Positions 14,044 through 64,000 are shown, counted from the stretch's first letter. The stretch is DNA of 64,000 bases from an uncultured Actinomycetota bacterium (GCA_963714145.1 OY970235.1:2961722-3025721), one strand, 5' to 3'. The notes: a model not told the origin generated them from the sequence alone. Made by a program: numbers and translations.

Positions 14044-14311
14044 CACGGACCCCCTCTCGACTCCTCGATATCGCCGGCGTGTCGCCCCCCGCGAGGCGGC
14101 CTCGAGGACGAGCGCAGGGCCCGCCCCGTACCTGCTGCTTGATCTCCCGCCCGTACCGCCAGGTCCCCGCCCGCTCCCCCGCGGACCGCTCACCTGGCAC
14201 CGGGGAAGGTGCGCCAGGGTGGCGGTCCAGCGTTTCCGCGCCGCTGGTGCGTCACGCGGAGCGGGAGGAGACCTCGCCGTACGGACAGCTCCGTGCCTCG
14301 ATCCGAGCCGG

Positions 14312-14743
14312 TCAGAGCACCCCGGGCAGCACCTCCTCCTCCAGGTCGGCGAACGCCTGCTCCCGGTCGGCCAGGTAGGTCTCCCAGGCGGCGGTGTCCC
14401 AGATCTCCAGCCGCGTGTTCGCGCCGATGACCACGCAGTCCTTGGTCAGCCCGGCGTACTGGCGCAACTGGGTCGGGATGGTGACGCGGCCCTGCCGATC
14501 CGGGATCTCGTGCGAGGCGCTGGCGAAGAAGACCCGGCTGTAGTCACGCACTGTCTTCTGGGTGACCGGCGCCTGTGACAGCGCCTCGGTGACCCGACGG
14601 AACTCCTGGATCGGGAACACGAACAGACAGCGTTCCTGCCCTTTCGTGATCACGAGCCCCTCCGCCAACTCGTCCCGGAACCGGGCCGGCAGGAAGAGCC
14701 GGCCCTTCTCGTCGAGCCGGGGCGAGTGCGTACCGAGAAACAC
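14312..14743 (-). CDS. mraZ: MraZ, dcw-cluster transcriptional regulator
   Basis: This is the last 143 codons of track ORF 14312..15049: [26 protein letters not shown]...[15 protein letters not shown] (two SpoVT/AbrB-like halves). GTG 14741-14743 gives the canonical 143-aa length. Confidence 0.92.
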
Positions 14744-14790
14744 CCGGCACCACCTCCGCTCGACCCGGTGGCCACGACCCCCCGTCGTTC

Positions 14791-14830
14791 TCCACCGCGC
14801 GCCACCATACCCCACTTTCCCCCACCCACA
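14791..14830 (-). promoter_or_regulatory. Candidate MraZ operator: GTGGN boxes at exact 10-bp phasing, ending 48 nt upstream of the mraZ start
   Basis: The minus-strand sense reads TGTGG GTGGG ggaaa GTGGG gtatg GTGGC gcgcg GTGGA. On the plus strand, CCAC occurs at 14792, 14802, 14812 and 14822. The 5-nt box plus 5-nt spacer layout matches the direct repeats reported for E. coli MraZ. Confidence 0.55.
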
Positions 14831-15056
14831 ACCGTGAAATCGCCTCCCGCGCTCCACTTGGTGCCCATTCGCGCAGGTCAGCAGGTGGAGCCGCAGTGGG
14901 GCGCCGCCACGCCCCCCGCCGTCGAATTGAGTGCCCCCACTCCGCTCCACCGCCGGCACCGGCCCAGTACTGCCGGAACTGACAGCCCGAGTGGGGAAAC
15001 GTGGAGCGAATGACGGGCCCCGGACGCCGGGCAACGACACCCAACCCACCGCCGAC

Positions 15057-15330
15057 GGCTTCGCCTCGCGGGTGACGGCTCCGCCCCGCAGGTGGCGGCT
15101 CCGCGTCCCGGGTGGCGGCTTCGCCCCGCGGGTGACGGCTCCGCCTCGCAGGTGGTGGCTTTGTGTCCCGGGTGAGGGCTGAGCGCCATCACCGGCGTAC
15201 CCGTACTCGTCACCGACCAGCGGTCGACGTCACCGACGCACCGAAGCCGTCACCCGCACCCGCGACGGCATCACCACCGGGCGAAAGTCATCACTCGCCT
15301 GCGGAAAGCGTCACCACAAGGCGGGAGCCG
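15057..15330. repeat. Thirteen 20-bp-phased units in two opposed arrays (6 x GGTGR, then 7 x TCAC(C)), dyad centre near 15182
   Basis: GGTG occurs at 15071, 15091, 15111, 15131, 15151 and 15171 (exactly 20 bp apart; the units form two 60-bp super-repeats). TCAC occurs at 15189, 15210, 15230, 15250, 15271, 15291 and 15311. The array lies in the intergenic region between the small CDS 15603-15845 and mraZ. Confidence 0.85.
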
Positions 15331-15553
15331 CGCAGGCCGATGCAATCGCGCGCGGGCGGGCAACCGCACCCGCGCCGGACGGCGTCATCCAGGGCGGGCC
15401 GAACCATCGACCGCCGCTCGGCCCATCCGGCCGCACAGCCCGTCCGGCCGCGCTCCCGCGGCCACGCGAGTGCCGCACGCGCCTCGGCCGGCGCAACAGA
15501 GAACCGGGGGTTTCGGGTGGGCAACTCTCGGGAAGAGGTTGAGACCAAATGGC

Positions 15554-15579
15554 GCGGGGCCGGCACTGGCCGGCCCCGC
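15554..15579 (-). terminator. Perfect 11-bp GC hairpin (gcggggccggc-actg-gccggccccgc) 24 nt downstream of the 15603 stop
   Basis: Stem 15554-15564 pairs with 15569-15579 around a 4-nt loop. On the minus strand it is followed by CCATTTGGTCTC, which is only a weak U-tract. Confidence 0.55.
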
Positions 15580-15602
15580 AGGGAGTGCGTGTTGTGTCGG
15601 TC

Positions 15603-15845
15603 TTAGGCTCTTGCGGTGCCCTCGACGCTTACGGAGGCGACTGCACCCTTCCGGTTGGCCCGAACCCGGACGGGCGTATCCGGCGCGAGTCCGGCGGCCA
15701 TGGCCTGCCGCAGGAAGCCAGCAAGTTCGTCCAGGGTCATACCATCCCGAAGCTCAGCAGTTGCGGTAATCGTGCGCCGCGTGGTGACCTCGAGCCCACC
15801 GGAGTTGGCGGGCACGACGGAACCAGTCCGATCAGCGGCGGACAT
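15603..15845 (-). CDS. Small hypothetical protein (80 aa)
   Basis: ATG 15845 within track ORF 15603..15917 is preceded by GGAGGAG with a 6-nt spacer. The product is MSAADRTGSVVPANSGGLEVTTRRTITATAELRDGMTLDELAGFLRQAMAAGL.... It has its own hairpin terminator. I recognise no family. Confidence 0.6.
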   Translation of the reverse strand: MSAADRTGSVVPANSGGLEVTTRRTITATAELRDGMTLDELAGFLRQAMAAGLAPDTPVRVRANRKGAVASVSVEGTARA

Positions 15846-24430: not shown

Positions 24431-24656
24431 ACCGTGGGGTCCGCGGGGGCTCGGTCCCCGCGGCCAGCATGCCGGGCGACCCGGCGAGCGCTACCCGCGA
24501 GCAGGGTGCGCCCAAGCCCGGCCCCCGCGGCCAGCATGCCGGGCGACCCGGCGAGCGCTATCCGCGAGCAGAGTGCGCCCAAGCCCGGCCCCCGCGGCCA
24601 GCATGCCGGGCGACCCGGCGAGCGCTATCCGCGAGCAGGGTGCGCCTGAGCCCGGC
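24431..24656. repeat. Hairpin-headed intergenic repeat: a 25-bp head followed by a 67-bp unit x3
   Basis: Unit starts (ccccgcggccagcatgccgggcgacccggcgagcgctaYccgcgagcagRgtgcgcc...) are at 24456, 24523 and 24590. The head hairpin ccgcgggg/ccccgcgg spans 24441-24463. The third copy supplies the last codons of the methyltransferase 24625..25392. Confidence 0.9.
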
Positions 24657-35854: not shown

Positions 35855-36079
35855 GTGGCGCACGCTCCGCCGTTCTACTGCCCGTACTGCGGGGATGAGG
35901 ATCTGCGGCCGTTCGGGGAGAAGCACGGCGACTGGCGCTGCGGCGCCTGCCGGCGCGTCTTCACGCTGCGCTTCGTCGGGCTGGCGCGGCCGGACGGGAC
36001 GGCGGTGACCGGCGACGCGCCGGCCGGCGGGTCGGTGGCCGGCATAGTCGCGGAGGTCGACGGGTTGGGCCGGACATGA
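35855..36079 (+). CDS. Small Zn-ribbon protein (CPYC...CGAC) between the sulfite reductase gene and cysH
   Basis: Track ORF 35855..36079: MAHAPPFYCPYCGDEDLRPFGEKHGDWRCGACRRVFTLRF. A GGGAGGG SD precedes the start. A small gene occupies this position in other actinomycete cys clusters, as far as I recall. Confidence 0.6.
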   Translation: MAHAPPFYCPYCGDEDLRPFGEKHGDWRCGACRRVFTLRFVGLARPDGTAVTGDAPAGGSVAGIVAEVDGLGRT

Positions 36080-36234
36080 GCGAGCTTGCGAGCGAATCAG
36101 GCAGCACGGTGCGCTCGTGTCTCATGACGGGTCCGAGCGCCAGCGAGGAGCCGGCATGAGCGAGCTTGCGAGCGAATCAGGGAGCACAGTGCGCTCGTGT
36201 CTCATGACGGGTCCGAGCGCCAGCGAGGAGCCGG
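36075..36234 (+). repeat. 80-bp tandem duplication (78/80 identical), each unit carrying an SD, an ATG and an overlapping TGA
   Basis: The units span 36075-36154 and 36155-36234, and the head CATGAGC recurs at 36235. See the first finding for the mini-ORF relay. Confidence 0.95.
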
Positions 36235-36235
36235 C

Positions 36236-36940
36236 ATGAGCATTGCGGTGACCGAGCAACCCCGGCTGGCCGCGCTGGCCGCCGAGGCCAACGCCAGGCT
36301 GGGCCGGGCGCACCCGCTGGACGTGCTGCGCTGGGCCGCGGACGAGTTCGGCGACGGGCTGTGCGTGGCCTCGTCGATGGGCGACGCGGTGCTGCCACAC
36401 CTGGCCTCCCGGGCCCGCCCCGGCATCCCGATCATCTTCCTCGACACCGGCTACCACTTCGCCGAGACCATCGGCATGCGGGACGCGGTGGCGGCCACCC
36501 TGCCGGTGACCGTGCTCAGCATCCAGCCCCGGCGGACCGTCGCCGAGCAGGACACCGACGAGGGCCCGCGGCTGTTCGAGCGCGACCCGGACCGCTGCTG
36601 CGCGCTGCGCAAGGTGGCCCCGCTGGCCGGCGCGCTGGCCCCGTACACGGCCTGGGCGGCCGGGTTGCGCCGGGACGAGAGCGAGACCCGGCGGAACATC
36701 GGCGTGGTGGAGTGGGACGCCAAGCACGGCCTGGTGAAGCTGAACCCGCTGGCGAACTGGACCGAGGACGACGTGCAGGCCTACATCGCCGAGCACGGCG
36801 TGCTGGTCAACCCGCTGCACTACGACGGGTACGAGTCGATCGGCTGCGCGCCGTGCACCGCCCGGACGGCCGGCGGCGCCGACGCGCGGGCCGGGCGCTG
36901 GGCCGGCAGCACCAAGACGGAGTGCGGCCTGCACGTCTGA
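36236..36940 (+). CDS. cysH: APS/PAPS reductase (Fe-S type CysH)
   Basis: Track ORF 36197..36940. I prefer ATG 36236 (GAGGAG SD, 6-nt spacer). Cysteines are CCALRKV plus C-terminal GCAPCT, and the protein ends in ECGLH. Confidence 0.9.
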   Translation: MSIAVTEQPRLAALAAEANARLGRAHPLDVLRWAADEFGDGLCVASSMGDAVLPHLASRARPGIPIIFLDTGYHFAETIGMRDAVAATLPVTVLSIQPRRTVAEQDTDEGPRLFERDPDRCCALRKVAPLAGALAPYTAWAAGLRRDESETRRNIGVVEWDAKHGLVKLNPLANWTEDDVQAYIAEHGVLVNPLHYDGYESIGCAPCTARTAGGADARAGRWAGSTKTECGLHV

Positions 36941-62707: not shown

Positions 62708-64000
62708 ATGGCAACTATTGGGGGAGGGAAACGGCCGGGTGGGTCCGTAGACTCGCTCGACGTGGAGACGGCTGTGGCCGACCCGCTCACGGGGCAGGTG
62801 CTCGATCGGCGTTACCAGGTCGGGGGCCGGATCGCGCGCGGCGGCATGTCAGTGGTGTACGCCGGAGTCGACCTCCGGCTGGATCGCCAGGTCGCGATCA
62901 AGGTGATGGACGCCACACTGGCCCGCGACCCGGCGTTCGTCGACCGGTTCACCCGGGAGGCGAAGTCGGCGGCCAAGCTCGGGCACCCGAACGCGGTCGC
63001 CGTGTACGACCAGGGCGCCGACGGCGGGCACGTGTTCCTGGTGATGGAACTGGTCCGCGGCCGGACCCTGCGCGACCTGCTGGCCGAGCGCGGCCCGCTG
63101 CCGCCGGACACCGCGGTCTCGCTGCTGGAGCCGGTGCTGGCGGTGCTCGCCGCGGCGCACCGGTCCGGCCTGGTGCACCGGGACGTGAAGCCGGAGAACG
63201 TGCTGCTCTCCGACGACGGCGTGGTCAAGGTGGCCGACTTCGGGCTGGCCCGGGCGGTGGCCGCGGCCAGCACCAGCACCCAGTCCGGGGTGGTCTTCGG
63301 CACCGCCGGCTACCTGGCCCCGGAGCAGGTCGCGCAGGGCCGGGCCGACCAGCGTTCGGACGTCTACTCCGCCGGCATCCTGCTGTACGAGCTGCTCACC
63401 GGGGTCGTGCCGTACCACGGCGACTCCGCGGTGGCGATCGCCTACCGGCACGTGCACGAGGACGTACCGGCGCCGTCGGTGGCCGTCCCCGGCATCCCGG
63501 CCCCGCTGGACGCGCTGGTGCTGCGGGCCACCCGGCGTGACCCGGCCGCCCGGCCCGCCGACGCGGGCGCGTTCCTGGCCCAGCTGGGCGCGGTCCGCGC
63601 CGAACTGGGGCTGCGCCGGGTGCAGCTGCCGATCCGCACCGGCCGGCTGCCGCGTCCGCTGCCCGGGCCGGCCGGGCTGGCCGTCCCGACCGGGCGGGCC
63701 GGCACGCCGCTCGGTGCCGACTGGATCGCCGGGCGGCGCCACGGCGAGCACAACGTGACCGCGGCGCTGCCCCGGCTGGCCGGCGGCCCGCCGAGCCCCG
63801 CGCCCGCCGACCGCCCCGGCGCCCGGCCGCGGACCAACCGGGAGCAGCGGGCGCACCGCCGGCGGCTGATCGTCGGGCTGATCGCGGTGCTGCTGCTCGG
63901 CGCGACGGCCGCCGGCGCGGCCTGGTGGTACGGCAGCGGCCGGTTCGTCTCGGTGCCGCCGCTGTCCGGGCTGACCAAGCAGGAGGTGATCAACCAGGCC
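62708..64000 (+). CDS. Hanks-type Ser/Thr protein kinase (PknL-like by synteny), runs off the right edge
   Basis: Absent from the ORF track because it is truncated. My translation gives YQVGGRIARGGMSVVYAG...AIKV, HRDVKPENVLL, DFGLA and GTAGYLAPEQ, then a TM segment (LIVGLIAVLLLGATAAGAAWW) and the start of an extracellular domain. ATG 62708 and in-frame GTG 62762 are both possible starts. Confidence 0.88.
   Translation, partial: MATIGGGKRPGGSVDSLDVETAVADPLTGQVLDRRYQVGGRIARGGMSVVYAGVDLRLDRQVAIKVMDATLARDPAFVDRFTREAKSAAKLGHPNAVAVYDQGADGGHVFLVMELVRGRTLRDLLAERGPLPPDTAVSLLEPVLAVLAAAHRSGLVHRDVKPENVLLSDDGVVKVADFGLARAVAAASTSTQSGVVFGTAGYLAPEQVAQGRADQRSDVYSAGILLYELLTGVVPYHGDSAVAIAYRHVHEDVPAPSVAVPGIPAPLDALVLRATRRDPAARPADAGAFLAQLGAVRAELGLRRVQLPIRTGRLPRPLPGPAGLAVPTGRAGTPLGADWIAGRRHGEHNVTAALPRLAGGPPSPAPADRPGARPRTNREQRAHRRRLIVGLIAVLLLGATAAGAAWWYGSGRFVSVPPLSGLTKQEVINQA

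Follow-up and report, generated by a model that had tools for sequence, protein, structure and literature searches.

Short tandem sites that are read by proteins have been described for plasmids, e.g., the 19- to 22-bp iterons of P1, F, R6K, and pPS10, which are read by Rep proteins, and the parC centromere of pSK41, whose 20-bp tandem repeats are bound by ParR. Rep proteins and ParR are precedents for the reading of 17- to 22-bp tandem units at two helical turns. Another kind of tandem array is represented by the promoter-region VNTRs, or minisatellites, of bacteria, such as the MIRU-VNTR loci of mycobacteria. For the cell-division genes themselves, the boxes of MraZ are GTG(G/T) motifs that occur in three or four copies with a separation of 6 nt (PMC12957436), and the sites of MtrA are composed of two half-sites of the form n-G-T-n-A-C-c, 4 to 5 nt apart (PMC5650626, PMC6265350). 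The array upstream of mraZ that is presented here, from an uncultured actinobacterium, can be regarded as a variant on known kinds, namely, phased binding-site arrays and promoter-region VNTRs. Its pattern is real and non-random, and its two-arm architecture is unusual.

The window, i.e., the whole 64-kb stretch of DNA that was analyzed, has a G+C content of 75.6%. The array lies in an 859-bp gap (14744 to 15602; 73% G+C, 27% A+T, and without an AT-rich tract) between mraZ, which is followed downstream by rsmH, and a conserved gene for an 80-aa protein (Table 1). The surrounding genes encode this 80-aa protein, a class I methyltransferase, a MoxR ATPase, a DUF58 protein, and MraZ and RsmH. On the plus strand, GGTG occurs at positions 15071, 15091, 15111, 15131, 15151, and 15171, in exact 20-bp steps and with A, G, G, A, G, and A as the fifth base. 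The motif TCAC follows at 15189, 15210, 15230, 15250, 15271, 15291, and 15311 (six TCACC and one TCACT), and the whole gap contains no TCAC other than these seven. A single 20-bp unit, GTCACCCGCGAGGCGAAGCC, underlies both arms in opposed orientations. In the mraZ-proximal arm, three types of unit make up a 60-bp super-repeat that is present twice; for 15056 to 15174, Tandem Repeats Finder reported a period of 20 bp with 5.2 to 6.3 copies and a period of 60 bp with 2.0 copies at 89% identity, and a separate repeat search agreed with this result. The mraZ-distal arm represents the proximal unit inverted and is far more degenerate, with an invariant core of C-R-TCAC-C (GGTGAYG in the sense of mraZ). 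The repeat search found inverted matches between the arms of 27 to 30 nt with 77 to 78% complementarity, and when the outermost unit of one arm is compared with that of the other, 14 of 20 positions agree. GTGG is the core type in 3 of the 13 units and GTGA in the other 10, including all seven of the distal arm, and the spacers are 16 nt long. Altogether, the array measures 273 bp and is located 314 to 587 bp upstream of mraZ. The preliminary description of the locus, with six GGTG motifs at 20 bp and seven TCAC motifs at 20 to 21 bp, was correct to the base; its two 60-bp super-repeats are borne out by Tandem Repeats Finder, its two example units were found at 15229 to 15248 (plus strand) and as the reverse complement of 15057 to 15076, and the distance of 310 to 590 bp that it gave agrees with ours.

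Table 1. Features of the mraZ upstream region, with positions counted from the first base of the window
Feature	Position	Strand	Details
mraZ	14312-14743	minus	143 aa, GTG start; from ORF and translation; PF02381 matched on the identical protein
Canonical MraZ operator	14792-14825	minus	four GTGG boxes with an exact 10-bp period, at -82, -72, -62, and -52
Putative dcw promoter, Pmra	14804-14831	minus	TTGTGG (14826-14831), N16, TATGGT (14804-14809); overlaps the operator
mraZ-proximal arm	15057-15180	plus	six head-to-tail 20-bp units, GGCTTCGCCnCGCGGGTGAC on the plus strand, GTCACCCGCGAGGCGAAGCC in mraZ sense
Polarity flip, dyad center	15172-15193		GTGAGGGCTGAGCGCCATCACC = GGTGA-N12-TCACC
mraZ-distal arm	15181-15329	plus	seven degenerate units with spacings of 21, 20, 20, 21, 20, and 20 bp
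Second tandem repeat of the spacer	15413-15451		17 bp x 2.3 (Tandem Repeats Finder)
GC-rich, terminator-like hairpin	15552-15578	minus	GCGGGGCCGGC-loop-GCCGGCCCCGC, directly after the 80-aa gene; read from the sequence
80-aa gene, conserved	15603-15845	minus	co-oriented with mraZ; far boundary of the gap

The hairpin behind the 80-aa gene was left unscored in a terminator scan because it has no T tail. The region in which it is located (-844 to -772 relative to mraZ) is conserved in the related contigs L167 and L170 according to blastn, and it is the sole portion of the distal gap that can be aligned across lineages. The 80-aa gene was called in L081, L082, L165 to L167, L170, and L172, and it was observed upstream of mraZ on all sufficiently long contigs of close relatives (MraZ identity of ≥88%) except L191. 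Searches of the protein against Pfam and NCBIfam gave no match above threshold. Its candidacy as the cognate binder of the array is not supported, since it is kept in relatives that lack the array, and it belongs to no recognizable DNA-binding family. In the interval between mraZ and rsmH, a subthreshold match to the mraW RNA motif (RF01746) was noted at 14183 to 14228 on the minus strand (30.5 bits versus a gathering threshold of 50; E = 0.0018).

With plasmid iterons the array shares the head-to-tail units of about 20 bp, i.e., two helical turns and within the 17- to 22-bp range of tandem units, as well as sets of four to seven units, the possibility of opposed sets, and a short conserved core in each unit. 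Unlike plasmid iterons, it is chromosomal, adjoins the dcw cluster, has no adjacent rep or par gene, and, in a gap with 73% G+C, lacks an AT-rich unwinding region. A search of plasmid and phage records revealed no similarity to the array, save a chance match of 72 bp inside a peptidase gene. The likeness to VNTRs consists in the intergenic position, a copy number that is polymorphic in close strains, and units that evolve in concert, whereas the inverted, degenerate arm with its invariant core and retained phasing distinguishes the array from simple slippage VNTRs. GTG direct repeats upstream of mraZ, including GGTGG in three units, are reminiscent of the MraZ-binding repeats (PMC12957436), but the array has a period of 20 instead of 10 bp, a predominance of GTGA in its cores, and units in two opposed sets, and it is not conserved in relatives. 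MtrA, a cell-division regulator in actinobacteria, has a half-site into which GTCACC fits; however, GTCACC is found in 6 of the 13 array cores only, and paired half-sites are absent from the gap. GT.AC-N5-7-GT.AC had no match on either strand of the gap, and neither the direct-repeat layouts of GlnR and PhoP nor the palindromes of BldM and CRP were present there. None of the known regulator site architectures compared here fits the array.

Iteron-like units that start with GTCACC were observed on fourteen phage contigs from IMG/VR (L177 to L190) as tandem repeats of 10 or 20 bp, e.g., eight copies of GTCACCGTTT and five copies of GTCACCCGTGACGCCACTTT, several of them at contig ends. They are unrelated in sequence to the array, and since the scan that brought them up, in which viral contigs were searched for GTCACC four times with 20-bp spacing, had no control 6-mer, no conclusion is drawn from it.

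The array stands out from its genomic background. The pattern GTCACC-N14-GTCACC-N14-RTCAC has one match in the window versus 0.00 expected, and chains of at least five identical 5-mers at distances of 19 to 21 bp were found at the array only, across all 64 kb, and in none of 20 shuffles. A second copy is absent from the window and, outside the orthologous site, from about 2 Mb of related loci. A match to the unit at 62948 with three mismatches lies inside a kinase gene and was dismissed as chance. Nor do TCACC pairs point to a regulon within the window, where just two other pairs are present, one in the dcw gene region (7519) and one inside a readable ORF (52418). Tandem Repeats Finder returned 47 rows for the 64 kb, so the genome is rich in tandem repeats; two well-preserved ones are a 67-bp repeat with 3.1 copies (24452 to 24656; 95% identity) and an 80-bp repeat with 2.2 copies (36069 to 36241; 96% identity); these are not coding repeats because their periods are not multiples of three. 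A literature search found no description of tandem repeats near mraZ, its matches being due to the author name Mrazek.

In the preliminary description, MraZ was named as an obvious candidate binder, and the dcw promoter was placed in the gap that contains the array. The choice of MraZ is not supported, and both the canonical operator and the likely promoter lie much closer to mraZ. The stretch from -88 to -47 in the sense of mraZ reads TTGTGGGTGGGGGAAAGTGGGGTATGGTGGCGCGCGGTGGAG and includes all four GTGG boxes of a canonical MraZ operator, and three consecutive GTG[GT]-N6 units occur nowhere else in the gap. Three or more MraZ boxes near the mraZ start (within 150 bp) characterize 159 of the 160 related loci, and 143 have four, while the upstream regions of the same 160 loci, taken from genomes and metagenomes, contained no match to the box pattern further upstream (0 in 196,648 bp). 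The sequence GTGGGGTA(T/C)nGT is kept across relatives. Since a consensus promoter scan of the gap returned nothing, Pmra is a prediction from conservation. The operator is conserved and is overlapped by the promoter-like TTGTGG-N16-TATGGT, and therefore the dcw promoter is most likely situated about 50 to 90 bp upstream of mraZ, outside the array and its vicinity. The likely dcw promoter and the MraZ operator of this lineage are thereby relocated to 14792 to 14831, and the array is dropped from that role.

As an MraZ operator, the array was rejected with respect to box sequence, as 10 of the 13 cores are GTGA and not GTG(G/T), to spacing, which is 20 to 21 bp instead of 10 bp, and to position, far upstream of mraZ and in a region where most relatives have no array. 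MraZ is a poor candidate for the binder for the same reasons: the cores are predominantly GTGA, the spacers are 16 nt long, and the array lies 230 to 500 bp upstream of the operator. Between the operator and the array, two-box modules of GTGGAG or GTGGGG with a spacing of 10 to 11 bp were observed in both orientations, i.e., at about 14851 to 14858, 14885 to 14901 (plus), 14933 to 14951 (minus), and 14981 to 14996 (plus). Motifs of the CGCTCCAC type are found at the same place in L084, L085, L167, L169, and L170. These modules may be auxiliary MraZ sites.

The strongest indication of constraint comes from the distal arm. When its seven units are aligned on TCAC, each of these four bases is present in 7/7 units, as is the C at position -2, and the C that follows the motif is present in 6/7. 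In the non-core columns, the mean pairwise identity is 0.41, compared with about 0.31 expected from composition. Turnover of the core at the non-core rate predicts about 15 changed sites among 35, whereas a single one was observed; by our own calculation, which allows for the choice of columns, the probability of one change in 35 core sites is about 1e-7, on a base of seven units that in effect represent one lineage. All of the approximately eight differences between the distal arms of the window and contig L081 lie outside the TCACC cores, which is weak evidence when taken alone (P ~0.1). The proximal arm, which is younger, shows no contrast between core and spacer. An invariant core amid nearly randomized spacers argues for a constraint that probably acts on the core, and the fit to a protein-binding array, which had been proposed before, is strengthened by the retained phasing and the diverged spacers of the degenerate arm.

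The nearest labeled relatives are metagenome-assembled genomes designated Mycobacteriales bacterium or Pseudonocardia sp. A comparable 20-bp chain was found in none of 80 genome loci with 74 to 85% identical MraZ proteins (Streptosporangiales and Mycobacteriales MAGs) and in none of 80 metagenome loci with MraZ identities of 73 to 92%, by which the array is ruled out as a conserved feature of the dcw cluster. Closer relationships were covered by a graded series of contigs with identical or 95 to 99% identical MraZ, ordered by their distance in the 432 nucleotides of mraZ. The array of the window is present in L081 to L083, L165, and L166 (0 to 4 differences), with a nearly identical distal arm. 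L084 (6 to 8 differences), which encodes an MraZ protein identical to that of the window, has at least seven 21-bp units, all with GGTGAC or GATGAC in the sense of mraZ and without a flip; the best-conserved portion of its units is CCCGCGCG and not the core. In L167 (18 to 20 differences; 99% identical MraZ), the gap of 661 bp has no array and at most one GTCACC remnant. The contig of L169 (27 to 29 differences, i.e., about 6.5%) starts inside an array with GGGTGAC-N11-GTCACC followed by three GTCACC at 20 bp, in the position and orientation of the proximal arm in the window. An irregular, unphased cluster of GTGAGC is present in L192 (31 differences). No array was detected in L170, L172, L175, and L176 (34 to 49 differences), the first three of which have full gaps of 422 to 455 bp, while the contig of L176 covers just 231 bp upstream of mraZ. 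In L086 and L100 (50 to 55 differences), the gap is only about 225 bp long.

Even the closest strains differ in the structure of the array. The proximal arm has six units in the window, L081, L165, and L166 and five in L082 and L083, which is exactly one 20-bp unit fewer, and the distal arm of L081 has lost 1 bp compared with that of the window. The proximal units are homogenized in the L081 group to four nearly identical copies of GTCACCCGCGAGGCGAAGCC, with GGTGAC in place of the GGTGG-type units, whereas the window has the 60-bp super-repeat of three unit types. An extra 12-bp duplication near the 17-bp repeat is present in L081 to L083. A coding repeat is excluded by indels between nearly identical strains, one of 20 bp and one of 1 bp, and the three ORFs that cross the region belong to no Pfam family, in agreement with the noncoding nature that had been assumed for the array. 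Across lineages, merely the promoter side (-305 to -1) and the hairpin region can be aligned, and the middle of the gap is hypervariable. By the touchstone of conservation in relatives, which the preliminary description had set, the array fails in part: L167, L170, L172, and L175 have none and L084 has units of a single orientation, but both phasing and flip are kept in L169. Since L169 shares core, period, and flip, the array must predate the divergence of L169 from the window; it has outlasted the species level, while the sequence of its units turned over. Conversely, it is missing in four relatives with 95 to 99% identical MraZ and the same promoter block, so any function must be dispensable. 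Judged from these contigs, the array is a structurally fluid accessory element that is restricted to a single lineage, a narrow group of soil actinobacteria.

The best explanation, which we hold tentatively and with slightly less than even confidence, is a lineage-specific, iteron-like array of variable copy number for a putative DNA-binding protein. The 13 iteron-like 20-bp units form two head-to-head sets in a hypervariable spacer, which is bounded by the hairpin after the 80-aa gene and by the conserved block of Pmra and MraZ operator. Most likely they would serve as a landing pad with multiple sites, in which each CRTCACC (GGTGAYG) core would accommodate one copy of a putative sequence-specific protein. 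With one core per two helical turns, the protein copies would line up along approximately the same side of the double helix, and each arm would nucleate a protein row, the two rows being oppositely oriented. Units would be gained, lost, and homogenized through slippage during replication or through unequal recombination. An influence on mraZ could be exerted only from a distance, e.g., by looping or by insulation from the upstream gene. In any case the array is an accessory element, distinct from both the dcw promoter and the canonical MraZ operator. From the pattern of conservation we infer that a putative protein may bind, and an effect on transcription is likewise a prediction. Counterevidence comes from L084, in which another part of the unit is better conserved than the core, from the unphased cluster of L192, and from the minisatellite-like behavior of the proximal arm.

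The main rival of a binding array is a neutral minisatellite, i.e., a by-product of slippage and inverted duplication in a repeat-prone genome with 75.6% G+C, for which neither a binder nor a role in dcw expression would be needed. This explanation is serious, if somewhat unlikely in our judgment, as copy-number polymorphism and concerted evolution, the hallmarks of VNTRs, were both found between close strains: five versus six units and a homogenized proximal arm accompany no more than 4 differences in 432 mraZ nucleotides. It is also favored by the spacer from -772 to -305, which cannot be aligned between lineages and harbors other, unrelated repeats (17 bp and 12 bp, and in L085 24 bp and 16 bp), by the lack of the array in L167, L170, L172, and L175, by the many tandem repeats of the window, the noncoding 67-bp and 80-bp repeats among them, and by the different repeats 230 to 450 bp upstream of mraZ in many unrelated actinobacteria. 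Uniform neutral decay, however, fails to account for an invariant core of 5 to 7 bp at a spacing of 20 to 21 bp when all other columns are nearly random, nor does it readily explain why L169 retains core, period, and flip at a nucleotide divergence of about 6.5% in mraZ. A conserved core with variable flanks and no present-day function could alternatively be left behind by a mobile element. The transposon ends of the Tn7, Mu, and Tn402 families carry several transposase-binding sites of roughly 20 bp each, and a MITE-like remnant with such ends, whose cores would have been required when it inserted, would match the two inverted arms of 20-bp sites within 273 bp, the similarity of the outermost units (14/20), and the status of the array as a lineage-specific extra compared with the gaps of 225 to 455 bp in other relatives. 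Nevertheless, this origin is improbable, given that the array is a single copy in the window and that about 2 Mb of related loci have none away from the orthologous position, that neither TGT/ACA termini nor a convincing target-site duplication is seen, and that plasmid or phage records show no similarity. The relatives offer no empty site that could be aligned. To our knowledge, six or seven sites per end also exceed those of known transposon elements, and the arrays of L169 and L084 at the same locus fit vertical descent.

Two further explanations were considered. MraZ oligomers might occupy the GGTGR cores as an auxiliary array and loop to the main operator; GGTGG in three of the six proximal-arm cores, the two-box GTGGAG/GTGGGG modules between operator and array, and the persistence of MraZ binding at high concentration with lengthened spacers (PMC12957436) are in line with this proposal. 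We assign it little probability because of the GTGA cores, which include all seven of the distal arm, the spacers of 16 instead of 6 nt, and a separate four-box operator that is kept in 159 of 160 relatives, whereas the array is not. In addition, 99% identical MraZ occurs without any array in L167 and identical MraZ with a single-orientation array in L084, and in the L081 group GGTGAC has taken the place of the GGTGG-type units. In a long mraZ leader or in read-through RNA, the arms might also pair to give an extended, imperfect hairpin, and the fold is moderately better than that of shuffled sequences (z = -3.5 in the sense of mraZ and -2.7 on the other strand). A structured RNA is nonetheless very improbable: the arms are complementary at just 77 to 78% over 27 to 30 nt, the minimum-energy structure makes up 0.0001 to 0.001 of the ensemble, and no Rfam match was obtained for 14744 to 15602 (Rfam 15; E ≤ 1). 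Changes in unit number are confined to one arm and would break the register of pairing, the single orientation in L084 permits no hairpin, and the likely promoter is downstream of the array. The disfavor into which RNA structure had been put from the outset thus seems justified.

If the array is read by a protein, as preferred above, it would represent a chromosomal, iteron-like control element of variable copy number that precedes the cell-division operon most conserved among bacteria, and it would illustrate how, within a genus, regulatory DNA can be rebuilt while the MraZ operator downstream of it stays fixed. A bolder version, which we consider unlikely, envisages a lineage-specific nucleoprotein complex on the opposed arrays upstream of the dcw operon, with a putative binder that reads GGTGAYG once per two helical turns and a unit number that acts as a heritable rheostat on the cell-division genes. 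The complex might communicate with the MraZ operator via the intervening GTGGAG/GTGGGG modules, and the gain or loss of units through slippage would alter the expression of these genes. If the array is neutral, it could still be used as a VNTR strain marker, and it would account for breaks of metagenome assemblies at this locus. The contigs of L084 and L169 indeed terminate in or near the array, which is therefore likely to break short-read assemblies.

Tandem repeats of other kinds were also observed upstream of mraZ. L085 has unrelated repeats in the equivalent position, i.e., five copies of a 24-bp unit and 3.8 copies of a 16-bp unit, and tandem repeats with periods of 10 to 35 bp are located about 230 to 450 bp upstream of mraZ in many unrelated actinobacteria, with L047, L051, L055, L108, L128, L130, and L163 among the loci that, like L085 and others, have repeats of their own.
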